NCBI GenBank assembly: GCA_016933055.1
Contig: JAFGBS010000009.1
Coordinates: 660,001 to 692,000, forward strand
Source: Promethearchaeota archaeon
Lineage (GTDB): Archaea > Asgardarchaeota > Lokiarchaeia > Sigyniarchaeales > Promethearchaeaceae
DNA length: 32,000 nt
Reading direction: 5' to 3'
The notes beneath the pieces were generated by a model. It was not told where the DNA came from. It did no database searches and saw only the letters and a program-made list of their open reading frames with translations. Shown here one piece after another: positions 1,767 through 14,988 of the stretch; position 1 is the stretch's first letter, and each line of letters opens with the position of its first letter. The position numbers and the translations under genes are program-made.

Positions 1767-3431
1767 TTAGCTCAATTGCTCGTATAACTGAATTAATCGG
1801 TCTTTTACGACTTCACTACGATACTCCGGAAGTATTATAGGAGCATATTTCTTGGGTTTAAGATTTAGTGCATCCAGTGCTTTCATTGTATTATGCACAT
1901 GATTCAGAGTTAACTTTCGAGGTATAGAATTTTTCCTATATTCTTTCGCTGCTGTAATACCCGCTCTTCGACCAAAAACGTTGATTTCTAAAAGAGAGTT
2001 ACCCATTAACCGATTCTTACCATGCACTCCTCCTGAGACCTCCCCCGCAATAAGTAAACCCTTAATGCTTGAATAGCAGTTTGAATCAAGATCTACGCCA
2101 CCATTCTGATAGTGGAGTGTGGGATACACCAGAATCGGGTCCATAGTTATATCAATGTCAAAACGCTTGAACATTCTGTACATTGCACTAAGATTTTGCT
2201 GAATAGTACCTTTCCCTTTAAGTTCTTCAATCAGGGGACTATCTAACCAAATTCCTCGCATTCCTGTGGGAGTCTCAATGTAGTTGTGGGTTGTTGTACA
2301 AATTTTTATTAAAGATGCTGCCTCTACATCTCGTGGTTCTAACGGATAGCAGATTTGTATTCCATCTTTTCCAAGAACTTGCCCCCCCAAACTCCTTACT
2401 TTTTCAGTAACCAGTAAACCTACAATCTGTTCAGGGTAAGCAGCACCTGTTGGGTGGAATTGGGTTGAATCAAGATCTCGGAGTTTTGCTCCCGCTCGAT
2501 ATGCCATTACCACGCCATCCATGGTTGCACCGTAGTGATTTGTCGTTGCAAAGCCTCCCACATGTAAACGACCAAATCCTCCTGTTGCCATCACGACAAC
2601 TCTCGCTCGAACAACAAAATACCTTTTGGTTTCTATATTATACAATATAGCCCCTGTAACTCTCCCCGAATCATCTGTAAGTAATTCTATTGCAGGTGAG
2701 AATTCTAGATAAGGTATACCTTGATTAATGGCTTCATCTTTTAAGGTTCGGAATATTTCCATTCCGGTATAATCTTTCGCACAGTGCATTCGATTTCGAG
2801 AAGTACCCCCTCCGGGAACTTCCACAAAATTCCCATCATCATCACAATCATAATTAACACCGAGTTCTTTGTGCCATTTAATTACTTTAGGAGCATCTCC
2901 AACAAGAGCTTTTACAAGTTCAGGTTTATTTTCGAAATGACCGCCACCAATTGCATCTAAATAATGAATGTAGGGATTGTCTTCTAGTCGATCTGCTGCT
3001 TGAATGCCACCTTGAGCCATTACACTGTTACAATCTCCGAATCGTAATTTTGTAACAAGTAGTATGTCTTTCTTAGGAACATCCGAATATTTAGCCCATA
3101 AAACTGCGTTTGTTCCCGCTCCTCCTGCTCCAATAATCAATACTCCTACATCATAATCGATTTGATTTAGGTCTATATCGTTTGGGTTGATAATTGGATA
3201 ACTTTCCAAGACATCTGCTACTTCATTAGGCACATTGTCTCCCTTATTGGGACCCCATGAAATATTTCGTTTATATTTTGGATTATAATCGGGATGAAAT
3301 TGATCTAATACTATCTTTCGATCTTCCATGGTCAAATCAGCAATGATCTGATCTCGTCGCTTGTTTCGGGTTTTATTTACATTATCTATACTTCTACGCA
3401 TCTCTTCCGTATAACCACCAATCAGCTTCAT
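1767..3431 (-). CDS. frdA: Fumarate reductase/succinate dehydrogenase-family flavoprotein (TfrA/FrdA-like, soluble)
   Basis: IIGAGGAG FAD motif. Dicarboxylate-site motifs QFHPT, VTEKVRSLGG, EPRD, PTLHYQNGG, HGKNRLMGNSL. Start placed at ATG 3431 (MKLIGG), preceded by GGAGGAGGAG at 3441-3450; the track's 3473 start overlaps the upstream gene. Confidence 0.88.
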   Translation of the reverse strand: MKLIGGYTEEMRRSIDNVNKTRNKRRDQIIADLTMEDRKIVLDQFHPDYNPKYKRNISWGPNKGDNVPNEVADVLESYPIINPNDIDLNQIDYDVGVLIIGAGGAGTNAVLWAKYSDVPKKDILLVTKLRFGDCNSVMAQGGIQAADRLEDNPYIHYLDAIGGGHFENKPELVKALVGDAPKVIKWHKELGVNYDCDDDGNFVEVPGGGTSRNRMHCAKDYTGMEIFRTLKDEAINQGIPYLEFSPAIELLTDDSGRVTGAILYNIETKRYFVVRARVVVMATGGFGRLHVGGFATTNHYGATMDGVVMAYRAGAKLRDLDSTQFHPTGAAYPEQIVGLLVTEKVRSLGGQVLGKDGIQICYPLEPRDVEAASLIKICTTTHNYIETPTGMRGIWLDSPLIEELKGKGTIQQNLSAMYRMFKRFDIDITMDPILVYPTLHYQNGGVDLDSNCYSSIKGLLIAGEVSGGVHGKNRLMGNSLLEINVFGRRAGITAAKEYRKNSIPRKLTLNHVHNTMKALDALNLKPKKYAPIILPEYRSEVVKDRLIQLYEQLS

Positions 3432-3432
3432 T

Positions 3433-4167
3433 TTATTCGTCTCCTCCTCCTTTCTTCTGATCCATAAAATCACGTGTTGTATACCGTTCTTTCAGTTTTT
3501 TTTTATCTATAGTCATCAATTCTTGAAATCCCTCCTCATATTTCCCGTCTTCTAATTCTTTCACTCTGATTTCTAGATACTTCGGAGTAGGGATATTATA
3601 TTTTCCATGCAATCGACGTGCGAGCATCGCTACATGGTATTGAGGGATTTCTGCTGGACATCTTATAGTACAAAGCCCACATTGCACGCAATCAAATGAT
3701 TCTTCCGCGGCCTTTGCTAATTTTCCATGCAAACAGTCTTGGATATAATTCATAACATTGATTTCTTGAGGACAAACACGCGTACATGCATTGCATGATA
3801 AGCAGCGTGCCACTTCTGGGTAGTATCGAAGTATAGAGTTTGCAGAAGGGCGGAGATCGTCAATTTTATATTTTGGCTTAGGTGCAGGAACGAATGGTAA
3901 TTGAGTTAAAACCATTCCATCCTCTACGGGTGTTTGACAAGCGAGTGCTGCATATATTCTGAAGTCGCCAGCCTTTCTATAAACGGTTGAGCAAGCCCCA
4001 CAGAAACCTGCTCTACAACCCGCTCCACGAGTGATTTTAAACCCCGCATATTCCATTGCTTTCATAATGGTAAGGCCAGTAGGAACGTCATATCTGCTAC
4101 CCATTATATATATCCGAACTTTTTCTGGTTCAGCTGACTGCTTTGTTTCTGATTTCGTTTTTGACAT
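3433..4167 (-). CDS. frdB: FrdB/SdhB-like iron-sulfur subunit ([2Fe-2S] plus two CxxCxxCxxxCP clusters)
   Basis: GCRAGFCGAC...ALAC [2Fe-2S] motif; CLSCNACTRVCP and CVQCGLCTIRCP; immediately upstream of the flavoprotein. Confidence 0.82.
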   Translation of the reverse strand: MSKTKSETKQSAEPEKVRIYIMGSRYDVPTGLTIMKAMEYAGFKITRGAGCRAGFCGACSTVYRKAGDFRIYAALACQTPVEDGMVLTQLPFVPAPKPKYKIDDLRPSANSILRYYPEVARCLSCNACTRVCPQEINVMNYIQDCLHGKLAKAAEESFDCVQCGLCTIRCPAEIPQYHVAMLARRLHGKYNIPTPKYLEIRVKELEDGKYEEGFQELMTIDKKKLKERYTTRDFMDQKKGGGDE

Positions 4168-4177
4168 ATTAATCCTT

Positions 4178-5110
4178 TTATTTTGACTTCTTTCGACCTA
4201 TTAATCCTAATTCCTTCAAAAAAGGCTTTGGATTTACAAGGTGTTCTTCAAAATGATATAATTTCATTGGTTTAATACCCAAGGCAAGAGCCATGAGTTG
4301 TGTAAAATAAAATATCGGAAGACTATTCTTCATTTTTCCGTTTTTAATTAATTCTATTTGTTCATGTTCTAAATTATATCTGCACAAGGGACATGCAACA
4401 ATAATAGAATTTGCATTGCGTTTTTTTGCAGCATCAATGAGTGTATGCACTTGGATATTCACCAGATCTTCCTCTCCGACTATATGGTAACTCCCACAAC
4501 AGAATTTGAAAAAAGGCCAATCAATTACTTCTGCTCCTAATGCCTGTACGATACTTTCCATAACTGTGGGGGCTTCTTGATCATCAATCTTAGCAATTTC
4601 TGGATGTAACAGCATACATCCGTAATAAGAAGCGATACGCATACCTTTTAAAGGCTTTTCCACAGATTCCATGATCGTTTCATACCCAATATCATCCCGT
4701 AAAATTTCTAGGAAATGTTTTACTTCCATATCACCTTTGTATTCTAAATTATCATATTCTAATTGCCAATTGATGGGTTCTAATTTATCTGTATCTTCCT
4801 TAACTTCAGCGTTAACAATTTTTAACGTTGAATTACACATCGAACATAGGGTAACTACTTGCTTATGTATTACCTCTTTAGAAGAATTCTCGAGGTTTTT
4901 TACATGTTCCGCTGCTCTTGCCAAATTCCGAACGGGTGCAATTCTTTTCATTAGATTATCTGTAGTCTGTGTATGTATAGTGCCACAGCAATTCCATTCA
5001 GGCATTTCCACCAATTCAGCATTGAGCTTCTTGGATACTGCAATCGCCGTTTCTTCGAAACCTACTGAATTTGTTTTTAGATTACATCCGGGAAAATAGG
5101 AATATTTCAT
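4178..5110 (-). CDS. hdrB: Heterodisulfide reductase subunit B (two CCG domains)
   Basis: YFPGC...WNCCG...CSMC and YYGC...FCCG...CPLC, two complete CCG cysteine sets; next to hdrC. Confidence 0.92.
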   Translation of the reverse strand: MKYSYFPGCNLKTNSVGFEETAIAVSKKLNAELVEMPEWNCCGTIHTQTTDNLMKRIAPVRNLARAAEHVKNLENSSKEVIHKQVVTLCSMCNSTLKIVNAEVKEDTDKLEPINWQLEYDNLEYKGDMEVKHFLEILRDDIGYETIMESVEKPLKGMRIASYYGCMLLHPEIAKIDDQEAPTVMESIVQALGAEVIDWPFFKFCCGSYHIVGEEDLVNIQVHTLIDAAKKRNANSIIVACPLCRYNLEHEQIELIKNGKMKNSLPIFYFTQLMALALGIKPMKLYHFEEHLVNPKPFLKELGLIGRKKSK

Positions 5111-5127
5111 AATTGGATCCTTTCCGT

Positions 5128-5541
5128 TTATAATTCGGATTTCTTTCGGTAACTACCTACTAAAGCTATATTAGGTAGATTCTTTTTCATTTCATCCGTT
5201 AATTCTATGCGTTTTAATCTTTCTGGCTCATTTCGTAATGTATATTCTCTCACGGCTTCCATTACAGCAGCAATGTCAACCTCTCTCGGACACCTTACAG
5301 TACATGTTAAACACGAACTACATACCCACGGAGAATTTGCACTCAATACCTTTTCTTTTTGACCAGTTTTTATATAGCTAATCACTTGATTTACGGTAAG
5401 ATCCATTTTGTATACAAATGCACATCCAGAACTGCATTTGCCGCAATCATAACAAAGATACACATTTGATCCAGATATCTCTTCTATAGTATCGATGAAT
5501 TTCAAAGCTTCCTTATCCATCTTGATATACTCAAAGGGCAT
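5128..5541 (-). CDS. hdrC: Heterodisulfide reductase subunit C (2x[4Fe-4S])
   Basis: CYDCGKCSSGC and WVCSSCLTCTVRCPREVD; size and position next to hdrB. Confidence 0.9.
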   Translation of the reverse strand: MPFEYIKMDKEALKFIDTIEEISGSNVYLCYDCGKCSSGCAFVYKMDLTVNQVISYIKTGQKEKVLSANSPWVCSSCLTCTVRCPREVDIAAVMEAVREYTLRNEPERLKRIELTDEMKKNLPNIALVGSYRKKSEL

Positions 5542-6034
5542 TAAATAATACCTCTCTTTTGTTTAATATCTTCCTAATCTGATTATATACAGTTTTCTGT
5601 ATTGATTTTAATTGATTTCGAATTTCAGGACTCAATGTGTCACTGAACTCCTGCACATATTGTATTTCTATCCCAATTATCGTAATTTTTTCTTTAGGGG
5701 GTATATTTTTAAATGTCTGATAACCCCATTCAAGTGCGGTAAAAAAATCCATGTTATGAAAATCTGATACATGGTGCGCACTTAAAAATTGGTCTGGGTG
5801 TAAAACTCTCACGGTTCCGGGGCGATTTTTTTCCGTAATTATTGAATCTATAATTATTACTTGATCATAGCTTTGAAATAATTCCACTAAACCGATTCCT
5901 GACAGGGATACATCTGGTTGGATTTTCACATTAGGAGAAAAGAGATTAGTTTGTTGTAACCATTCTACTATTTTGATGCCAATAGCATCGTCTCCCACTA
6001 TTGGATTTCCCAAACCGATGATCAGAGTTTTCAT
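5531..6034 (-). CDS. [NiFe]-hydrogenase maturation endopeptidase (HybD/HycI family)
   Basis: N-terminal IIGLGNPIVGDDAIG motif, VIIIDS, SAHH; directly downstream of the large subunit. Confidence 0.88.
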   Translation of the reverse strand: MKTLIIGLGNPIVGDDAIGIKIVEWLQQTNLFSPNVKIQPDVSLSGIGLVELFQSYDQVIIIDSIITEKNRPGTVRVLHPDQFLSAHHVSDFHNMDFFTALEWGYQTFKNIPPKEKITIIGIEIQYVQEFSDTLSPEIRNQLKSIQKTVYNQIRKILNKREVLFNAL

Positions 6035-6035
6035 A

Positions 6036-7523
6036 TTAATTCAATCGCTTTAATTCTCGTATTTTGTTTTTATTTTCGTCATAGATTTCGACGACCATTG
6101 GCATATGCCCATACATTGCGTGAGTTGCGCAAGCTAAACAAGGATCGTACGCTCTAAATGCCATCTCGATTTTATTTAAATCATCCTCATTATATTGGCC
6201 AGCATGAACCATTGCCTCCGCTGCTTGTTTCACGCTGATACAAATGGGACCATTATTATTCGTGGTAGCTACGATGATATTTGCTTTGATGACTTTTCCC
6301 TCATCATCAGTTTTATAATGATGATACAGCGTTCCTCGAGGGGCTTCTATCACACCTACACCCTCACCTGTTATATTTTTCTTTTCCACGGGGATTCGAT
6401 AATCATTGGAATAAATATCCTTGTCTTCTGCGAGTTCAACCATCCTCTCACCGCAATGCAAAATCTCAATTAAACGAGCCCAGTTAAACCCTAAGGTGTG
6501 GTGGGCAGGTTTTCCACCAAATACCTCATACATGTGTTGCATAGCTTCATTTGCAAGTGGAGTTTTAATATTATCAACAACATTAAGGCGTGCAAGTGAG
6601 TTCACTCTATATATTCCGCTGTCGGGACCATATACCAACCCTTTCCATCCTATTTTTTTCAAGAAGGGGAATTTTAAATAAGTCCATGGTTCTACATGCT
6701 CTGCTATGTAATCAAGGTAGTCTTTCGCTTCGAACTTGAATTTTTCCTTTCCATTACTATCCACAACTCTTACTATATTGCTATGGTAAAAATCTAATGC
6801 ATTATCATCGTCAACGACCGACATATAGTAGGAATCCATTTTGTATGCGTCAGAATTGATGAGATTCATCATCTTCTTGTTTTTTCGAACCTCTTGTTCC
6901 CATACTTCTAATCCTAATTGTCCAAATTCAACAATATATTTCCCCCATTTCCATAGTTTTTCTGCATCCTCCTTAGTAATACCTTTACTAATTCCCCCTG
7001 GTAATGCGGTTACGGGATGGGTCGCTTTTGCTCCGGTCATTGCTTGTGCTTCTTGGGCATAGGCACGCGCTCGTATTGCTTTTTTAGCAACTTCGGGAAA
7101 TTGATGTGCAATCCCTAATATATTATGAGTTCCTGGTTTGGATTTTTCACCTAAAATAAGATCTGGAAGAGCGAATGCATAATAGTGAAGGATATGACTA
7201 TGTACTACATGTGCCAAAGCCATAATTTCTCGTAACATTTTTCCCGTTTTAGGAGGTTCAACATTATATATCTGATCGGCAGCTTTTGCAGGAGCCAAAT
7301 GATGGGGGGTTGGACATACGCCACAAATACGGGGAGTTATCCTTAATACTTCTTCTATGGGCCTACCTTGCAAGAACCGTTCAAAGCCACGTAATTCTAC
7401 TACTTGATAATATGCATTCTCAACTCTACCTGCATTATTCAATAAAATCGTAATTTTCGCCAATCCTTCTAAGCGAGTAACAGGGTGTATTGTGACAATA
7501 TTTTTGGTTTTCTTCTTATCCAT
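6036..7523 (-). CDS. mvhA: Group 3c [NiFe]-hydrogenase large subunit MvhA
   Basis: VTRLEG, L1 RICGVCPTPH, EAPRGTLYHHY, L2 RAYDPCLACATH followed by a cleavable C-terminal tail; context with mvhD/G and hdrABC. Confidence 0.93.
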   Translation of the reverse strand: MDKKKTKNIVTIHPVTRLEGLAKITILLNNAGRVENAYYQVVELRGFERFLQGRPIEEVLRITPRICGVCPTPHHLAPAKAADQIYNVEPPKTGKMLREIMALAHVVHSHILHYYAFALPDLILGEKSKPGTHNILGIAHQFPEVAKKAIRARAYAQEAQAMTGAKATHPVTALPGGISKGITKEDAEKLWKWGKYIVEFGQLGLEVWEQEVRKNKKMMNLINSDAYKMDSYYMSVVDDDNALDFYHSNIVRVVDSNGKEKFKFEAKDYLDYIAEHVEPWTYLKFPFLKKIGWKGLVYGPDSGIYRVNSLARLNVVDNIKTPLANEAMQHMYEVFGGKPAHHTLGFNWARLIEILHCGERMVELAEDKDIYSNDYRIPVEKKNITGEGVGVIEAPRGTLYHHYKTDDEGKVIKANIIVATTNNNGPICISVKQAAEAMVHAGQYNEDDLNKIEMAFRAYDPCLACATHAMYGHMPMVVEIYDENKNKIRELKRLN

Positions 7524-8528
7524 TTATTTATCCTCCTTGTCAGAATGCAATTTTGAAATTAGAGAACTTCCATAAGTAAACCGATAAAACGTTCCTAATG
7601 GATCAGGAATACGTTGCACAATTTTCTCCAGTTGTTCTTCGGTCATTCCTTCTTCCGTATCCACTTCGAGCAAAGAAGTTAATGCTGAAATCATTTTTAA
7701 TCCATGGTCTTTAACTTTAACTGTCGGTCCCATGCACCCACGACATCCTACATTCATTTTTGTGCATAACGCTCCGCATCCTGAGCGAGTGGCTGGACCC
7801 ATACATATAATTCCTTGAGGAATCAAACATTTATCTGGATCGATTTTTTTGGTTTCTTGAGGTGAGAAAAATGCATGATAAGAAATTTGCTCGGGTTTTT
7901 CTCGACCGCATTCCTCACATAAAGTTCCCTCTCCAGCAATTACAGTTCCTTTGGGTGGTAATGTTCCTGTTTCCGAAAATTTCTTTAATACATCAACCAC
8001 CTTCTCAATTAATGGTACCATTGGGGGGCATCCTGGAACATAATAATCGACATCTATCACAGAGTTCAATGCACCAGCATCTTTGAGCATTTTAGGTAAA
8101 GTTAATTCATCCCCGCTCTTCAATTCTATTATCTCAAGAGGCACGGTTCCTTGTGGATTGTCCATGGATGGAACTTGTTCATACACTAAGTCAAATAATG
8201 ATTGATCATATGGTAAATTATCTAAACTTGGAATACCACCAAAATTAGCGCATGCGCCGAATGCTACAACAACCTTAGCTTTCTTTCGGAGAATTTCAGC
8301 CATTTCTAGGTCTTCTGATGTTCGTATAGCTCCATGATAAATGCCAATATCCACTTCTCCATCCTCCAAAGCAAGCAAGTCGTCAATTTTGAAATCCATT
8401 GCTGTGGGCCAAAATACAAACTCGCATAAATCGTCAACTTCGAATATTTTCTCGTTCAAATCAAGGATTGCAACGTCGCAACCTGCACATGTCGCTCCTA
8501 AAACAATTGCAGTCTTCAATTTCGCCAT
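7524..8528 (-). CDS. mvhG: Group 3c [NiFe]-hydrogenase small subunit MvhG
   Basis: CAGC, FGACANFGGIP, PGCPP and a C-terminal Cys cluster (CEEC...CMGPATRSGCGALC...GCRGCMGP). Confidence 0.93.
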   Translation of the reverse strand: MAKLKTAIVLGATCAGCDVAILDLNEKIFEVDDLCEFVFWPTAMDFKIDDLLALEDGEVDIGIYHGAIRTSEDLEMAEILRKKAKVVVAFGACANFGGIPSLDNLPYDQSLFDLVYEQVPSMDNPQGTVPLEIIELKSGDELTLPKMLKDAGALNSVIDVDYYVPGCPPMVPLIEKVVDVLKKFSETGTLPPKGTVIAGEGTLCEECGREKPEQISYHAFFSPQETKKIDPDKCLIPQGIICMGPATRSGCGALCTKMNVGCRGCMGPTVKVKDHGLKMISALTSLLEVDTEEGMTEEQLEKIVQRIPDPLGTFYRFTYGSSLISKLHSDKEDK

Positions 8529-8977
8529 TATCTCTTTCCTCCTTTACGGTATGGCTCTAAATACTTAAGATCTTCCACCATTTCAGTAGTAATTTTCGCA
8601 AATTTGGCAGCTTCCGTAGCAGATATCCATTCCAGTCGAAATCGTTTAGGATTCACTCCAATCTGTTCAAGTAGTTTGGATAAAATAGTCATACGTTTGT
8701 AAGCTTTATAATTGCCGGTTTTATAGTGACAATCTCCAAGGTGGCAACCCGTGATTAAGACCCCATCCGCACCTTCTAAAAATGCTTCAATAACTAGTTG
8801 AGGATCAATTCGTGATGAACAATTTACCATAATAGGAAGCACATTTGGAGGATATTGTAACCGAGATGTTCCAGCTAAGTCTGCACCTTTTCCAGAACAC
8901 CATCTGCATAAGAACATTATAATTTTCGGGTTGGTATTTTTAATTTCCTTATGGGATCGCTGCATTGTGGATGTCAT
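8528..8977 (-). CDS. mvhD: Methyl-viologen-reducing hydrogenase subunit D ([2Fe-2S])
   Basis: CRWCS..GADLAGTSRLQYPP, CSSRID, GADGVLITGCHLGDCHY, RFRLEWISATE. Confidence 0.94.
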   Translation of the reverse strand: MTSTMQRSHKEIKNTNPKIIMFLCRWCSGKGADLAGTSRLQYPPNVLPIMVNCSSRIDPQLVIEAFLEGADGVLITGCHLGDCHYKTGNYKAYKRMTILSKLLEQIGVNPKRFRLEWISATEAAKFAKITTEMVEDLKYLEPYRKGGKR

Positions 8978-10947
8978 TGTGCCATTTCCTCCCCTTTCAA
9001 AAGCGCCTTAATGCTTGCGCTGATGGACCTATAGGTAGAATTCTTCAGCTCAATGCTCCCCGATGGGCATGCAGCAGCACAAGAACCACACCCCTCACAT
9101 AATGCTTCACGAATCAGCACCTTATTTGATGTAGAATCATAATAGATAGCGCCGTATGGGCATACATGGATACAGGTATGGCATTTACCGCATGTTGTTT
9201 GTTCAATTTCAGCAATTTGTGGTGGTCTTTCCAAGGTTTTGTGAGATAATATTGTAATAGCTTTCGCTGCGGCTGCAGAAGCATTAGAAACTGTTTCAGG
9301 AATATCTTTGGGCCCAGATGCGGTTCCTGCAACAAATACTCCTGAAATTGCTGTTTCCACTGGTTTTAATTTCGGGTGTGCTTCTTTAATAAATCCTATA
9401 CTATCACATGATAATTTTAGAATACTAGAAATTTCTTTTGTTCCCTCACTTGGGATCAATCCATTTGCAAGAACGACCATGTCTGCATGTAATTCTACAC
9501 CTTCTCCCGCAATAGTGTTTACACCTCGAATTAAGATTCTATTTCCATCTTGTAATAGTTCCGAGACTTTTCCTCGAATATATATTACTCGTTCTTCTTC
9601 AGCAGCACGCTTATAAAATTCCTCATAATCCTTTCCGGCCGTTCGAACGTCGATATAAAAATTAATTGCCGTAGCATTGTGATTTAGGTGTTTAAATTGT
9701 AATGCATGCTTTGTTGCGTACATACAACAAATTTTCGAACAATAAGGAAGATGTTTAGCTGGATCTCGTGAACCCGTACAGTGAATGAATACAACCGTTT
9801 CAGGTTCCTTTCCATCGGATGGACGACGAATCACACCCGCAGTAGGACCGTTAGCTGACAATAAGCGTTCAAATTCTAAACCAGAAATTACATCTGGTAT
9901 GAGTCCATATCCATATTCCCCAATACTTTCGATTGGATAGGGTTCATAACCAGTAGCGACGATAATAGCGCCAAACGTATCTTCCATAATTTCCCCTCTC
10001 ATATCAAAATCCACTGCATCTTGTTCACATACTTCGGCGCATTTACTACAGATAAGAGGGTCAATTCCCAAGCAAGTTTTTGGGTCGATAACATAATAAG
10101 CGGGGACTGCTTGAGGGAATGCGATATAGATTGCTTTGCGGGGGGATAATCCCATATTGTATTCATCATGTACGACGACGGGACAAACCTCAACACAATC
10201 ATTACACATATTACACATTTCAGTGACATATCTGGGATTTTTACGGATTCTAACTTTAAAATTCCCTACAAATCCATCTACCACTTCTACTTCGGCACAT
10301 GTTAGAAGTTCAATTTTAGGATGATGACTTACCGCAACCATTTTTGGAGTTAATATACATTGCGAACAGTCAAGAGTTGGAAAAGTTTCGGCCAGTTGGG
10401 ACATGTGTCCACCAATTGAACTGGCTTTTTCGATTAGGGTCACATCATAACCCGAATCCGCAATGTCTAACGCAGATTGAATCCCTGCAATCCCTCCGCC
10501 TATAACAAGCGCTTTTTGTGTTACTGGGATCTCTAATGCAGTCAGAGGTGTATTCATTTTAACTCGCTCAATTGCAGATTCGATAATCTTGACGGCTTTA
10601 TTGGTCGCATCTTCTTTATTTTCATGCACCCAACTTACTTGCTCCCGAATATTAGCCATTTCTAATAGATAGGGATTCAAATCCGCTTCTTTTGTAGCAG
10701 ACATAAATGTTGGTTCATGCATATCACGTGAGCAAGCCGCTACTACCACTCTATTCAAATCTTTACTATGAATTGCCTCTTTCAGTAGATTTTGCCCAGG
10801 ATCGGAACACATATACATGTTTTCTTCTATAAAAGCAACATCATGCTTCTTTTTTATCTCTTCAATTGCTTTATCGATATCTACTGTGTGTGCAATATTT
10901 CTTCCACACCGACAAATAAACACCCCGATTCTTTTTTCCTCTGACAA
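8974..10947 (-). CDS. hdrA: Heterodisulfide reductase subunit A (bifurcating FAD/Fe-S subunit)
   Basis: IGVFICRCG, CSDPGQ, MANIREQVSWVH, VIGGGIAG, TFPTLDCSQC, HCTGSRD...CSKICC, inserted and C-terminal ferredoxin domains. TTG start. Confidence 0.95.
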   Translation of the reverse strand: MSEEKRIGVFICRCGRNIAHTVDIDKAIEEIKKKHDVAFIEENMYMCSDPGQNLLKEAIHSKDLNRVVVAACSRDMHEPTFMSATKEADLNPYLLEMANIREQVSWVHENKEDATNKAVKIIESAIERVKMNTPLTALEIPVTQKALVIGGGIAGIQSALDIADSGYDVTLIEKASSIGGHMSQLAETFPTLDCSQCILTPKMVAVSHHPKIELLTCAEVEVVDGFVGNFKVRIRKNPRYVTEMCNMCNDCVEVCPVVVHDEYNMGLSPRKAIYIAFPQAVPAYYVIDPKTCLGIDPLICSKCAEVCEQDAVDFDMRGEIMEDTFGAIIVATGYEPYPIESIGEYGYGLIPDVISGLEFERLLSANGPTAGVIRRPSDGKEPETVVFIHCTGSRDPAKHLPYCSKICCMYATKHALQFKHLNHNATAINFYIDVRTAGKDYEEFYKRAAEEERVIYIRGKVSELLQDGNRILIRGVNTIAGEGVELHADMVVLANGLIPSEGTKEISSILKLSCDSIGFIKEAHPKLKPVETAISGVFVAGTASGPKDIPETVSNASAAAAKAITILSHKTLERPPQIAEIEQTTCGKCHTCIHVCPYGAIYYDSTSNKVLIREALCEGCGSCAAACPSGSIELKNSTYRSISASIKALLKGEEMAQ

Positions 10948-10963
10948 TGTTCTCTACTTTCCC

Positions 10964-11506
10964 TCATCCTTTATGATTCTTGCCAAGATTGAATGCCTTG
11001 ATATTATTTTCAATAAATCGAGCTCGAACCTTATCTTTCATAACTTTCATAAAATCTTTTTCTTTAAACAAATCCGTATTAGCACACACATATCCCAACA
11101 TACAGATGTTCGCGTAAAGCTTACTTCCGAGGGTTTCTGCTAATGCAGTTGCAGGTATCTTAAAAATCTTAGATGCCTTCTTTGCATGAGCATCTAAGAT
11201 AACCAGATCTTCCTCCACAAACATAACTCCCCTTTCCTTCATTCTTCCTATATATTTTGTATATGCTTCTTCTGACATACAAACGAAATAATCATAATGA
11301 GTTGCTTTAGGAAAATCAATTTCGGTAGTATCAATTACGACATCCGAACTGCTTGCTCCTCCTCTACTTTCCGGTCCATAGGATTGAGTCATGATTGCAG
11401 TCTTTCCCTTTTCGTGCAATGCAATTGTTTCACCCACAAGCCGACCCATGAGGGCTATGCCTTGCCCTCCAAATCCCGCAAATCGCACTTCAATACGATC
11501 CGACAC
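10964..11506 (-). CDS. korC: 2-oxoacid:ferredoxin oxidoreductase gamma subunit
   Basis: FAGFGGQGI, QSYGPESRGGASSSDV, NICMLG. GTG start. Confidence 0.9.
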   Translation of the reverse strand: MSDRIEVRFAGFGGQGIALMGRLVGETIALHEKGKTAIMTQSYGPESRGGASSSDVVIDTTEIDFPKATHYDYFVCMSEEAYTKYIGRMKERGVMFVEEDLVILDAHAKKASKIFKIPATALAETLGSKLYANICMLGYVCANTDLFKEKDFMKVMKDKVRARFIENNIKAFNLGKNHKG

Positions 11507-11509
11507 TAT

Positions 11510-12379
11510 CTACAACTCCGGTTTTACATTTTTCGCCATTTTATGCAGGCGTAATAAATTATCAGTTAAAGTTGGTTTTTGGATCTCCACAAATTTTCCT
11601 ACAATAATCGGACCATCCTTTTGTATTTGTGCTTTCATGGGATCAATTCCGTGTTGGAGAATCGTTCTATTTTTAAAGTTCTCTAATATGGTTAAACCAT
11701 CTCGTAGTTGGTTTCTACGACCATATGTGGTTGGGCATGCTCCTAGAATTTCAACAAATGAGAATCCTTTATGCAATAAAGCCTCGACGAAACTTTCTTT
11801 CATTCTTCGAACATCTAAAGCTGTCCAGCGGGAGACATACGTTGCACCACACGAAGCTGCAAGCGCTGGGAGGTTAAAAGGCTCCTCTATATTACCGTAT
11901 GGGCTGGTTGTTTGATATTGCCCAATATAGCTCGTTGGTCCTACCTGACCTCCTGTCATTCCATATTGAAAATTATTCACACAAAAAACTGTAATATCCG
12001 CATTCCTTCGAGCAGCATGAATTAAGTGATTTCCACCAATGGACGCGATATCTCCATCCCCGGAGATAACAATCACCTTTCGGTTCGGATCAGTAATGCC
12101 TAAACCAATAGCGAAGGGGAGAGCTCGACCATGAGTAGTATGAAAAGAGTCGAAATTTAGATATCCCGCAGCTCTCCCCGTGCATCCAATACCTGAGACT
12201 ATGGCGATATTTTTGGGGTCAATTTCGGATTCGATGATAGCTTCAATAACTACGGTCGTTATACTTCCCAGTGAGCAACCCGAGCACCATATATGTGGAA
12301 TTCGACCGGGTCGTAAATAGGAGTCCAAGGGATGGGCTTCTGCATCTAAAATCATACTATTTGATTCTTTCTTAATCAT
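11510..12379 (-). CDS. korB: 2-oxoacid:ferredoxin oxidoreductase beta subunit (TPP-binding)
   Basis: WCSGC, SGIGCTGR, HTTHGRA, SGDGD, NNFQYGMTGGQ, CPT. Confidence 0.92.
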   Translation of the reverse strand: MIKKESNSMILDAEAHPLDSYLRPGRIPHIWCSGCSLGSITTVVIEAIIESEIDPKNIAIVSGIGCTGRAAGYLNFDSFHTTHGRALPFAIGLGITDPNRKVIVISGDGDIASIGGNHLIHAARRNADITVFCVNNFQYGMTGGQVGPTSYIGQYQTTSPYGNIEEPFNLPALAASCGATYVSRWTALDVRRMKESFVEALLHKGFSFVEILGACPTTYGRRNQLRDGLTILENFKNRTILQHGIDPMKAQIQKDGPIIVGKFVEIQKPTLTDNLLRLHKMAKNVKPEL

Positions 12380-13548
12380 ATCTTTTCCTCCATTTCTTTT
12401 AGGATCTCTGCGGGTGTGTGTATTGATCCCCCCAATTTGAGTATTCCATATACATCCGCCTTCTGTTTTGCTGCAGCTCTTTGTACTTCCCGAGTGATTT
12501 GTCCATTATTAATTTCCACAACAAATATTACTTTGGCTTTTTTTGCCATTTCTTGTATTGCTTCATCCGCAAAAGGCCATATTGTAATTAATCGCAACAA
12601 TCCCGCTTTTATTCCTTTATTACGGGCAAGATTTACAGCACCTTTCGCTGCACGTGAGCTTATACCAAACGAAATTAAAACATATTCTGCATCTTCCAGC
12701 AAATATTCTTCAAATTTAATAATATCGTTCTTGTTCAGTAAAATTTTATTACATAAGCGTTTTACAATCTTTTTCTGCGCGCTGGCGTTTATAACCGGGT
12801 ATCCTCTTGCATCATGAGTGAGTCCAGTTGTGATAGTTCGATATCCCTCTCCAGCTACGGCCATTGGAGGAATTAGATCTTTATCGGCTTCGTATGGAAG
12901 ATGTATTTGTTGTCCGGGTTTATCAGATGGCTTTTTGCGATTCAATCTCTTTACTTGACTTCTTTTTGGGATTACTAATCGTTCACTCATATGCCCAATG
13001 GTTTCATCCATCAATATGGTTACTGGAACACGATATTTTTCCGCATAATTAAACGCATCTATTGCTAAATCGAAACATTCTTGAACGCTATTTGGGGAAA
13101 GTGCTATAATTTCATAATCTCCATGAGACCCCCAACGTGCTTGTTGAACATCCTGCTGACCGACTAAGGTGGGTAATCCAGTCGATGGCCCCCCCCGTTG
13201 CACATTAACAATTACACAAGGGGTTTCCATCATCACCCCGAGACCAATATTCTCCACCATAAGAGAATACCCAGGACCAGAAGTTGCTGTGCAGGATTTC
13301 CATCCTCCCCAACTGGCGCCAAGAACTGAAGCGATTGAGGCTAATTCATCCTCAAATTGCACAAAATGTCCTCCCACTTGCGGGAGACGTTCTGCCATAT
13401 GCTCCGCCACTTCTGAACTCGGTGTAATTGGATATCCTCCAAAGTACTTGCATCCCGCAGCTAGGGATCCTTCTGCAACAGCAAGATTTCCAGTTGTGAA
13501 ATATTCTCCAGTTAATATATCCGGAATTTCTTCAGTTTTCTTACTCAC
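12376..13548 (-). CDS. korA: 2-oxoacid:ferredoxin oxidoreductase alpha subunit
   Basis: TGNLAVAEG, YPITPSSE, QFEDELAS, TATSGPG, NVQRGGPSTGLPT. GTG start overlapping the korD stop (GTGA). Confidence 0.92.
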   Translation of the reverse strand: MSKKTEEIPDILTGEYFTTGNLAVAEGSLAAGCKYFGGYPITPSSEVAEHMAERLPQVGGHFVQFEDELASIASVLGASWGGWKSCTATSGPGYSLMVENIGLGVMMETPCVIVNVQRGGPSTGLPTLVGQQDVQQARWGSHGDYEIIALSPNSVQECFDLAIDAFNYAEKYRVPVTILMDETIGHMSERLVIPKRSQVKRLNRKKPSDKPGQQIHLPYEADKDLIPPMAVAGEGYRTITTGLTHDARGYPVINASAQKKIVKRLCNKILLNKNDIIKFEEYLLEDAEYVLISFGISSRAAKGAVNLARNKGIKAGLLRLITIWPFADEAIQEMAKKAKVIFVVEINNGQITREVQRAAAKQKADVYGILKLGGSIHTPAEILKEMEEKI

Positions 13549-13856
13549 TTTTTCTCCCCCTTATCAGGTATTTTAACGAATATTGCAAATTCTGGACAAA
13601 TTAACTCGCAAAAATGACATTCTGCACATTCATCAAACGAATCTCCTTTCTTTAATCGAGGTGGATGGAAACCCTTTTGGTTGATCTCATCTGAAACTTC
13701 AAGAATTTGTTCTGGACAATAATTTATACAAAATCCACATTCTTTGCAACGTGATTTTATTACAAATATTTGAGGTTTTGCATGACTCCACTTATCTAAA
13801 TCAACGAAAGCGGGCCATTCTGCTTTCTTCTTCTTGCGATCAAAACTTGCATTCAT
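13545..13856 (-). CDS. korD: 2-oxoacid:ferredoxin oxidoreductase delta subunit (2x[4Fe-4S] ferredoxin-like)
   Basis: CKECGFCINYCP and CAECHFCELICPEFAI; first gene of the operon. Confidence 0.88.
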   Translation of the reverse strand: MNASFDRKKKKAEWPAFVDLDKWSHAKPQIFVIKSRCKECGFCINYCPEQILEVSDEINQKGFHPPRLKKGDSFDECAECHFCELICPEFAIFVKIPDKGEKK

Positions 13857-14253: not shown

Positions 14254-14988
14254 ATGAGTTCTCGAACCACGATAGCATATAAACCTTTAATTAATGCAGG
14301 TACCGCTATTTTAACCATAAGATTATTTACAACAATTTATTCTGGGTCTATAATAATATTGGTTGTTCTTATACCATCGATTTCTTCAATTCTTTCTATT
14401 CTTCTGCAAGTTCCTACTTACATTGGGTTCTTAGCTAGTCTGTTATTGTTAATATTCATTCTCAAAACATTCCAACGAATGGAAATAGACCCTAGAATAA
14501 CATCAGATAATAAAAACAGAATAAAAGTTGGTAAAATATCTACACTCATTTTAATAATCATTCTTTCATTAGTTGGCATATTCTACATGGTAGTCGTTAT
14601 TTTCTATGTTGAGCTAAGTCTCATAACTCTATCGGAAATAATGGCATATATTTTGATCTATTCATTGATTGTTCTTGAGATAATAAATGGGATCTTCGTC
14701 ATAATCACCTTTGTATGTTTAAGCAAGATCCTTTGGGGGTTTGATGATCTAGTGGAATTAAGGATCTTTCTCCATTTTACAAGATGGTATGGGATTTTTG
14801 TTGCAATAGGTCAATTGATTGCTGGCATAACTCTAATTGTTCTCTTACCTACAGGTAGTACTGTATTTATAGAGATACTCTTAATTGTATCTCTTACCAG
14901 TTCAATTTTTACTGGTATAGCCGGAATTTTCCAAATTGTTATTGCTATCGGATTCATCTTAATTGGAAGACGACTAAACATCTCTTAA
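14254..14988 (+). CDS. Hypothetical integral membrane protein (about 6 TM segments)
   Basis: 244-aa ORF, almost wholly hydrophobic segments; fills the gap and is followed by a T-tract at about 14995-15001. No family recognised. Confidence 0.7.
   Translation: MSSRTTIAYKPLINAGTAILTIRLFTTIYSGSIIILVVLIPSISSILSILLQVPTYIGFLASLLLLIFILKTFQRMEIDPRITSDNKNRIKVGKISTLILIIILSLVGIFYMVVVIFYVELSLITLSEIMAYILIYSLIVLEIINGIFVIITFVCLSKILWGFDDLVELRIFLHFTRWYGIFVAIGQLIAGITLIVLLPTGSTVFIEILLIVSLTSSIFTGIAGIFQIVIAIGFILIGRRLNIS

Follow-up and report, generated by a model that had tools for sequence, protein, structure and literature searches.

By what route could electrons reach a fumarate reductase-like protein pair that is encoded next to subunits of heterodisulfide reductase (Hdr) and a hydrogenase, and that includes neither a membrane anchor nor a CCG domain of its own? 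This question is raised by nucleotides 3433-5541, which comprise the genes frdB, hdrB and hdrC, of a 32,000-nucleotide stretch of the genome of a Promethearchaeota archaeon (GenBank assembly GCA_016933055.1, contig JAFGBS010000009.1, positions 660,001 to 692,000; hereinafter, the window, with all positions counted from its first nucleotide). The three genes belong to a run of 13 co-directional genes, about 12 kb long, that extends on the minus strand from 13856 to 1767 in the order korDABG-hdrA-mvhDGA-hycI-hdrC-hdrB-frdB-frdA, with every two neighbors either overlapping or separated by no more than 17 nucleotides (nt). A preliminary interpretation made from the DNA alone (hereinafter, the sequence-only reading) had offered two answers: either hdrC-hdrB-frdB-frdA is a split thiol:fumarate reductase (Tfr) or type E succinate dehydrogenase (Sdh) that shares HdrB with the bifurcating complex, or electrons pass from HdrA via HdrC to FrdB with no thiol shuttle. 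We consider it probable, albeit far from certain, that the 13 genes encode one soluble redox machine and, judging by its gene content, the operon is a hydrogenase-fed (Mvh-fed) variant of the predicted, widespread Hdr-linked soluble fumarate reductase complex that has been in print since 2019.

The frdB-like gene (3433..4167, minus strand) encodes a 244 amino acid (aa) Fe-S subunit with matches to Pfam Fer2_4/Fer2 and to 4Fe-4S dicluster domains. A [2Fe-2S]-type pattern, C51-x4-C56-x2-C59-x17-C77 (nt 3937-4017), is followed by two four-Cys motifs, CLSCNACTRVCP (residues 122-133, nt 3769-3804) and CVQCGLCTIRCP (residues 160-171, nt 3655-3690). Translation of 3433-4167 thus places two full CxxCxxCxxxCP motifs exactly where the sequence-only reading had located them, at 3655-3804. 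All 12 cysteines are invariant among 31 family members from many phyla, so that this pattern cannot be attributed to chance. As in the SdhB/FrdB subunits of complex II, the N-terminal [2Fe-2S] pattern precedes two Cys motifs and the gene adjoins that of a flavoprotein, but the second motif contains four cysteines rather than the three of the [3Fe-4S] motif CxxxxxCxxxCP. The contrast with SdhB proteins carrying one [3Fe-4S] cluster, which the sequence-only reading had emphasized, is reproduced within the same genome, where the canonical SdhB combines Fer2_3 with the three-Cys motif CxxxxxCxxxCP. In archaeal type E SdhB, a second [4Fe-4S] cluster likewise takes the place of the [3Fe-4S] cluster.

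By profile comparison, FrdB is only distantly SdhB-like: it scores 28.6 bits against the SdhB/FrdB model TIGR00384 (cut-off 88) and has no match to Fer2_3. The dicluster half is HdrC-like (phmmer E-value of 1.7e-5 against chain 7bkb_C) and, when the structure model of FrdB was compared with solved structures using Foldseek, the template modeling (TM) scores were 0.41-0.43, normalized by target, for HdrC chains and no more than 0.29 for FrdB/SdhB chains. The global matches of this model are weak (TM at most 0.33), probably because the predicted orientation of the two domains is arbitrary, and they were used only to assess the domain-level resemblance to HdrC and SdhB. Against the TfrB model NF004898, FrdB scores 37 bits (cut-off 385), with only residues 24-90 matching the model, at positions 19-85. 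The portion of FrdB downstream of the second motif (nt 3436-3654) had been described as a charged tail of about 55 aa; instead, it is a conserved extension for which helices are confidently predicted at residues 176-230 (predicted local distance difference test, pLDDT, of 84-94), with 13 K/R and 13 D/E among the last 59 residues. A Pfam search detected no CCG domain in FrdB, as the sequence-only reading had maintained; given this absence, FrdB would be unable to oxidize thiols itself and would have to receive electrons by protein contact.

The only CCG protein of the operon, as had been proposed and as the Pfam search confirms, is the HdrB-like protein (4178..5110, minus strand), in which both CCG motifs are complete (nt 4835-5086 and nt 4382-4618). 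Its alignments with solved HdrB chains extend along their entire length (E-values of 1e-37 to 1e-30), and it scores 156 bits against the HdrB model TIGR03288 (cut-off 345). The cluster ligands C9, C41, C42, C89 and C92, and C165, C204, C205, C240 and C243, are invariant in all 31 sequences compared (10 of 10), as are all 8 cluster cysteines of the HdrC-like subunit (5128..5541, minus strand), which contains two CxxCxxCxxxC(P) motifs for two [4Fe-4S] clusters and scores 61 bits against the HdrC model of NCBIfam, below the cut-off. In methanogens, the crevice that accommodates the heterodisulfide of coenzyme M (CoM) and coenzyme B (CoB), CoM-S-S-CoB, is built by HdrB and HdrC, and CoB is bound by Arg14, Arg201 and Arg240 of M. 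thermolithotrophicus HdrB (PMC13261682). Alignment to the same solved HdrB shows that these positions are occupied in the window protein by N14, G212 and H249, and across the 31 cassette HdrBs, arginine is found at the three positions in 0, 2 and 0 sequences, respectively. The loop CCGAGGG reads CCGSYH in the window and CCG(S/A)Y(H/N/Q) across the 31 cassette HdrBs.

The prediction of a complex of HdrC, HdrB and FrdB yielded a score of 0.65, compared with 0.00 for the best of three controls; of 80 solved complexes, 58 attain the mark adopted for such predictions, as do 2 of 110 mismatched pairs. At least 91% of the contacts are shared among the runs, and the pLDDT of the partner is at least 75. 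In the predicted interface, residues 120-126 of FrdB, including C122 and C125, lie on residues 8-9, 12-13 and 40-41 of HdrB, including the ligands C9 and C41, so that the model docks FrdB, via its first [4Fe-4S] motif, at the N-terminal CCG cluster of HdrB. The predicted footprint covers residues 12-13 of HdrB, next to position 14 of the CoB-binding arginines, and HdrC, too, is predicted to contact FrdB, with its C-terminal tail (residues 112-137).

The frdA-like gene (1767..3431, minus strand) starts with an ATG at 3431, a single nucleotide beyond the end of frdB, and encodes a flavoprotein of 554 aa, the same length as the database copy, with FAD_binding_2 as the only Pfam match. We compared the active site with those of E. 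coli SdhA, M. smegmatis Sdh1 and the SdhA and NadB proteins of the same genome. In the alignment to E. coli SdhA, the HPT, TE-x2-R, RD, H-Y and NRL substrate-binding and catalytic motifs are kept, with all dicarboxylate-binding and catalytic positions present (the His of HPT, Thr-Glu, two Arg, the His of H-Y and the Arg of NRL, with the proton-donor Arg among them); these positions are invariant in 10 family members. The histidine that binds flavin adenine dinucleotide (FAD) covalently is replaced by an asparagine (nt 3027-3029) that is invariant in the family. In complex II, FAD that is bound non-covalently permits the reduction of fumarate but not the oxidation of succinate; the replacement therefore argues for the former activity and against the latter. 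From the residues that are kept, we infer that fumarate is the likely substrate of FrdA. Outside the active site, the protein departs from its relatives: Succ_DH_flav_C is missing (no match to PF02910) and the chain stops about 70 aa past the NRL motif, a conserved N-terminal extension of about 95 aa is specific to the family, and the RGEGG motif reads RSLGG. A structure model of FrdA built from a 10-sequence alignment was poor (mean pLDDT 58.6) and was not used.

The window FrdB-FrdA pair is, by sequence, not the ordinary complex II of this cell. A canonical SdhAB is encoded on another contig (C16, approximately 128400-139000) together with fumC and a two-subunit korAB, with divergent sucC and sucD alongside; its SdhA contains FAD_binding_2, Succ_DH_flav_C and the covalent-FAD histidine. 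The window FrdA is only 29-30% identical to this SdhA and to the NadB that the genome also encodes. The canonical SdhAB also lacks an adjoining anchor gene, and several HdrD-like dicluster-CCG proteins of this genome could serve it. The sequence-only reading had noted that no membrane anchor is encoded, and this observation stands: none of the 13 operon proteins contains a convincing hydrophobic segment (the highest Kyte-Doolittle mean over 19 residues is 1.67), and no Sdh_cyt anchor was found in the genome, which is 91% complete. That reading had also called for a search of the genome for a second CCG protein, anchors and thiol-cofactor pathways. At least 11 other CCG genes do exist elsewhere in the genome; like Sdh_cyt, the CoM biosynthesis marker ComA and DsrC were not found in this 91%-complete assembly, and no protein exceeds the TfrB cut-off, so that no true TfrB was found either. 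Taken together, the docking prediction, the missing CoB-binding arginines and the failure to detect ComA, DsrC or a true TfrB favor a thiol-free path.

The resulting scheme, a thiol-free route HdrA-HdrC-HdrB-FrdB-FrdA to fumarate, is in our assessment the better-supported mechanism, and we lean toward it. The MvhAGD hydrogenase would take electrons from H2 and hand them to the flavin in HdrA, the subunit that is the site of flavin-based bifurcation in characterized HdrABC complexes, and this flavin would split each electron pair. The low-potential electron would reduce ferredoxin, which the co-encoded 2-oxoacid synthase could use to carboxylate succinyl-CoA. The high-potential electron would travel through the two HdrC clusters to HdrB's pair of non-cubane clusters, and from there, by direct protein contact, into FrdB, with its two [4Fe-4S] clusters and its [2Fe-2S] cluster, and on to the non-covalent FAD of FrdA, where fumarate would be reduced to succinate. 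FrdB would occupy the place that the CoM-S-S-CoB substrate takes on HdrB, with no diffusible thiol needed. Thus, the part of the sequence-only proposal that dispenses with a thiol shuttle is favored, whereas its direct transfer from HdrC to FrdB is not: the route would lead via HdrB, not around it. We infer, in addition, the direction of electron flow and bifurcation itself. The stronger version of this scheme, in which the HdrB clusters serve as an electron relay with no disulfide chemistry, FrdB sits in the heterodisulfide crevice and the whole is a thiol-free soluble H2:fumarate,ferredoxin oxidoreductase, strikes us as about evenly balanced between being right and wrong. Given that succinyl-CoA synthetase and fumarase are encoded in the genome, the path from fumarate to 2-oxoglutarate is complete, and the operon covers its fumarate-to-succinate and succinyl-CoA-to-2-oxoacid steps; bifurcation could pay for the latter with the former.

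The FrdB-FrdA family, distinct and strongly conserved, has members in no fewer than 579 archaeal and bacterial species genomes. FrdA relatives (53-89% identity) were detected in Asgard archaea, Thermoplasmata, Thermococci, Theionarchaea, Methanofastidiosum, Culexarchaeia and Mnemosynella, and in many bacterial phyla, including WOR-3, Acetothermia, Thermotogae, Chloroflexaceae and Aminicenantes. Gene linkage was analyzed in 83 loci, with 44 of the 80 species-genome loci spanning at least 15 kb. Wherever the contig allows, frdB and frdA occur together, and hdrC-hdrB-frdB-frdA are contiguous in this order, with tiny gaps, in 49 of the 83 loci. The four genes are therefore a conserved, self-contained cassette, in agreement with one half of the proposal of a split Tfr or type E Sdh sharing HdrB; as for the other half, the assignment to these known enzymes, no TfrA, TfrB or SdhE threshold is reached. 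Among the 44 long loci, frdB is present in 44, hdrA in 38, hdrB in 37, mvhD in 32, korA in 25 and mvhA in 20, and the combination of Hdr, kor and a two-gene anchor-less fumarate reductase recurs in 25. The full 13-gene order recurs in a Thermococci metagenome-assembled genome (MAG) and in Ca. Heimdallarchaeum aukensis. Each of the 13 window proteins resembles its syntenic counterparts in other phyla more closely than its same-genome paralogues; in particular, HdrB and HdrC are 42% and 40% identical, respectively, to the cassette copies (from Methanofastidiosia in the case of HdrB) vs 29-32% to the same-genome paralogues and, by this comparison, are orthologous to the cassette copies. Loci with stand-alone frdBA suggested that FrdBA might work without HdrB; this possibility was rejected because all five such genomes (5 of 5) carry a cassette-type hdrB elsewhere (313-361 bits, against 173-206 for the other HdrB paralogues).

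Several loci vary the set of modules (L028, L029-L031, L035-L036, L052/L057/L059 and L060). In a Thermoplasmata cluster, mvhGA is missing and the HycI protease is retained; some Heimdallarchaeota MAGs show the arrangement korABG-mvhD-hdrA-hdrCB-frdBA, with no hydrogenase; two MAGs that carry the cluster possess two hdrA copies; in some bacteria, frdBA directly follows hdrA-mvhD and hdrCB lies upstream of kor; and a Spirochaetota locus encodes a double HdrA of 1003 aa along with two extra ferredoxin-like proteins. Apart from a sediment metagenome that is probably the source sample, contigs of a 2017 hot-spring metagenome run contain 47% of the sampled words of window positions 1767-11000, which points to a close relative of the cluster in a different habitat.

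Within a sample of the Asgard phylum, the FrdA family was detected in 60 of 301 genomes (E-value at or below 1e-120). It is nearly universal in some families (25 of 28, 5 of 5, 5 of 5, 6 of 7 and 8 of 11 genomes); the 6 other genomes from the window's own family and 69 from a sister family yielded no member. The closest representative copies in this sample (79% identity) belong to the family of Ca. Heimdallarchaeum aukensis, which shares only the phylum with the window genome. This patchy distribution, with the closest copies in a distant family, suggests transfer or repeated loss. The cluster appeared to be wholly missing from a genome of the same genus, an interpretation that we rejected because this genome retains the last 70 codons of frdA (the 3' remnant at L109:6252-6461, equivalent to G239:C4:13251-13460; 80% identity), located a few kb from the conserved gene for a major facilitator superfamily (MFS) transporter that flanks the cluster in the window. 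The 2 kb beyond the remnant, up to the end of the contig, match nothing in the window genome. Judging by this arrangement, the remnant looks like a deletion scar of the cluster, a rearrangement or an assembly break.

The remaining nine genes of the operon, all on the minus strand, encode the predicted ferredoxin-dependent enzyme, the putative electron-splitting subunit and the hydrogenase. The first four encode a 2-oxoacid:ferredoxin oxidoreductase of the four-subunit type: korD (13545..13856), for a ferredoxin-like delta subunit with two [4Fe-4S] clusters (Pfam Fer4_7/Fer4; 51% identity to korD of the syntenic clusters); korA (12376..13548), for the alpha subunit (POR_N and PFOR_II), overlapping korD by 4 nt; korB (11510..12379), for the beta subunit that binds thiamine pyrophosphate (TPP_enzyme_C; 54-58% identity to the syntenic counterparts vs 40% to the same-genome paralogue); and korG (10964..11506), for the gamma subunit (POR). 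KorA scores 546.7 bits against NCBIfam NF006412, above the cut-off of 411, and 394.6 bits against the 2-oxoglutarate synthase model, below the cut-off of 579. The FAD/Fe-S subunit HdrA (8974..10947) is below the cut-offs of both NCBIfam models, HdrA2 (785 bits) and HdrA (632 bits), and is 54-59% identical to HdrA of the syntenic clusters vs 45% to the second HdrA of the genome. The hydrogenase module consists of mvhD (8528..8977; Pfam FlpD, E-value of 1.1e-50), for the [2Fe-2S] connector between hydrogenase and HdrA; mvhG (7524..8528; Oxidored_q6), for the [NiFe] hydrogenase small subunit; mvhA (6036..7523; NiFeSe_Hases), for the large subunit of the Mvh/Vhu type, with 414 bits on NCBIfam VhuA, below the cut-off; and a gene for a HycI-type hydrogenase maturation protease (5531..6034; HycI, E-value of 6e-13). 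An open reading frame of 244 aa with no Pfam match (14254-14988, plus strand) lies immediately upstream of the operon, in opposite orientation. A scan for sigma-70 promoters and terminators, which is not applicable to an archaeon, detected no excess over shuffled sequences. Elsewhere in the genome, contig C11 carries a second mvhD-hdrA-hdrB-hdrC set (136756-140888) and a second [NiFe] hydrogenase, with mvhA-like and mvhG-like genes interleaved with those for two more HdrB-like CCG proteins (166683-172972), and contig C2 encodes a HdrA-MvhD fusion (95619-97949), so that several Hdr systems coexist in this organism.

Several considerations weigh against the thiol-free route to fumarate. The docking model was built without metal clusters and gives contacts rather than cluster-to-cluster distances, and its score may partly reflect the solved HdrB-HdrC interface because the dicluster half of FrdB is HdrC-like. 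Given that no NCBIfam cut-off is reached for TfrA, FrdA, HdrA, HdrB or HdrC, the functions are read from superfamily features, and 2-oxoglutarate is no more than the probable product of Kor. Furthermore, both CCG motifs of HdrB are intact, with all ten cysteines invariant, a feature that a pure relay does not obviously need and that a thiol/disulfide site equally would, and the hdrC-hdrB-frdB-frdA cassette occurs without hdrA in Methanofastidiosia and Theionarchaea (loci L024, L040 and L053); in these methanogen-related lineages, the simpler reading is a Tfr-like thiol:fumarate reductase. Extended to the window, this reading would have a free HdrC-HdrB-FrdB-FrdA complex use the CCG site of HdrB to oxidize a thiol pair or a dithiol protein, and reduce fumarate, while separate MvhAGD-HdrA-HdrCB complexes re-reduce the disulfide and bifurcate to ferredoxin, with HdrB in double duty. 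The methanogen TfrB fuses the same parts (matching FrdB residues 24-90 at TfrB positions 19-85, HdrC at 121-224 and HdrB at 264-466), and the published model of a similar cluster left a thiol route, via DsrC, open (PMC6315080). However, the CoB-binding arginine triad is missing both in the window HdrB and across the family; the search of the 91%-complete genome recovered no ComA or DsrC; the family has spread widely among bacteria, which are not known to produce either CoM or CoB; one and the same HdrB would both make and consume the disulfide; and the predicted footprint of FrdB falls on those elements of HdrB and HdrC that form the heterodisulfide crevice in methanogens. The lack of fused FrdB-CCG forms among close relatives points the same way, albeit as weak evidence. 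Overall, a thiol shuttle appears unlikely here.

The same components could also run in reverse, such that ferredoxin from 2-oxoglutarate oxidation by Kor and electrons from succinate oxidation by FrdAB join at HdrA and yield H2, a confurcation that would serve a syntrophic, amino acid-degrading lifestyle. Published Asgard models, as quoted in PMC9723677, treat MvhADG-HdrABC as an H2-evolving confurcating complex. Kor, which is encoded in the same operon, and Frd are both reversible in principle, but the asparagine that replaces the covalent-FAD histidine in all family members disfavors succinate oxidation. In addition, the mean of the textbook standard potentials of ferredoxin (about -500 mV) and fumarate/succinate (+33 mV), as calculated here, is about -230 mV, far above that of H+/H2 unless H2 is extremely low, which makes the evolution of H2 from succinate and ferredoxin unfavorable. 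On balance, confurcation is quite improbable. Finally, the true substrate of FrdA might be a different one, such as L-aspartate or some other enoate or dicarboxylate, with the Hdr module supplying or removing the electrons. The L-aspartate oxidases, including NadB, have the same active-site residues, the termini of FrdA are remodeled and RGEGG is altered, and no curated cut-off is reached (294 of 718 bits for TfrA, NF004900; 252 of 567 for SdhA/FrdA, TIGR01812; 241 of 453 for NadB). Nevertheless, the highest NCBIfam score is that on the TfrA model, the six fumarate/succinate-binding positions are all kept, the genome has its own NadB, and an obligate Fe-S partner together with recurrent linkage to Kor fits adjoining steps of the reductive branch of the tricarboxylic acid (TCA) cycle; a different substrate is, in our view, very unlikely.

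The fumarate-reducing Hdr complex favored here resembles several known or predicted systems. All six subunit types of the MvhAGD-HdrABC complex of hydrogenotrophic methanogens (PDB 5ODC, 8RVU, 9SFI and 7BKB), the H2:CoM-S-S-CoB,ferredoxin oxidoreductase, are encoded in the window, with both CCG motifs and both HdrC clusters kept; the window differs in scoring below every curated Hdr cut-off, in the absence of the CoB-binding arginines, in the extra FrdB and FrdA genes after hdrB, and in that no CoM marker was found. Type E SdhABE(F), a succinate:quinone reductase or methylmenaquinol:fumarate reductase with the CCG "anchor" SdhE, likewise has a CCG protein adjoining SdhB-like and SdhA-like subunits. 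The window HdrB scores 142 bits on the SdhE model (cut-off 500) vs 156 on the HdrB model and, in contrast to type E Sdh, has an HdrC partner and an HdrA/Mvh context, with no sign of membrane association or of a quinone site. The Methanothermobacter TfrAB (Heim et al., 1998, cited by PMC6315080 and PMC8163825) is, like the window system, soluble and anchor-less and combines a flavoprotein with one [2Fe-2S], two [4Fe-4S] and CCG modules, but its TfrB is a single polypeptide of 488 positions with two CCG domains of its own at the C-terminus, whereas the window has separate hdrC, hdrB and frdB and one extra dicluster module.

The closest precedents are known from gene clusters. Rubin-Blum et al. 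(2019) reported a cluster in which flxABCD-hdrABC, korABCD and tfrAB genes are interspersed and proposed a single complex in which HdrA bifurcates to Kor and TfrAB, either directly or via the thiol of DsrC (PMC6315080). This reductive TCA gene cluster, found in tubeworm symbionts (the Escarpia laminata symbiont and Ca. Endoriftia) and in Thioflavicoccus mobilis, shares with the window hdrABC, the four-subunit kor, the two-gene anchor-less "tfrAB" and the same logic. The differences are in the input, FlxABCD oxidizing reduced nicotinamide adenine dinucleotide (NADH) there vs MvhD-MvhG-MvhA with a HycI-type protease here, and in the hosts, Gammaproteobacteria there vs an Asgard archaeon here; the likeness is one of gene sets, and both complexes are predicted. 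The "succinate operon" of Pseudoclostridium thermosuccinogenes, with fumarate hydratase, Flx-Hdr and a two-gene novel fumarate reductase (PMC7282089, citing Koendjbiharie and van Kranenburg, 2019), similarly joins an Hdr module to a two-gene anchor-less fumarate reductase, which there directly follows the Hdr bifurcation module; it contains Flx rather than Mvh and has no kor genes. This Hdr-linked reductase has been proposed to couple succinate formation to ferredoxin reduction (PMC7282089); no protein under this name occurs among the named relatives of a bacterial family member. A Tfr syntenic to an Hdr-like complex has also been reported in Mnemosynella (Adam et al., 2022; PMC9635834), the source of one of the family loci analyzed here (L049). 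The sequence-only reading had called a bifurcating fumarate/ferredoxin oxidoreductase of this kind undescribed, a claim that has to be withdrawn because Hdr-linked fumarate reductases had already been proposed (PMC6315080, PMC7282089). Neither a published description of the 13-gene version fed by Mvh nor a biochemical test came up in our literature search. What is new here is the predicted docking site of FrdB on the N-terminal CCG cluster of HdrB and the loss of the CoB-binding arginines, both of which make thiol dependence testable.

HdrABC-MvhADG genes are common in non-methanogens, including Asgard archaea, and the published Asgard models assume CoM-S-S-CoB as the acceptor or an H2-evolving confurcation. 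The cluster described here suggests a concrete candidate acceptor for Hdr in non-methanogens, namely fumarate rather than a methanogen-type disulfide. If this is the case, fumarate would be the long-missing acceptor of the "orphan" Mvh-Hdr complexes in Asgard archaea and many other non-methanogens, and the complex, together with 2-oxoglutarate synthase, would energetically couple two steps of the reductive TCA cycle. The energy of fumarate reduction would then be conserved without a membrane, as low-potential ferredoxin for CO2-fixing synthesis of 2-oxoglutarate, a possibility that is relevant to the hydrogen metabolism that eukaryogenesis models assume and to the energy balance of reductive TCA pathways.

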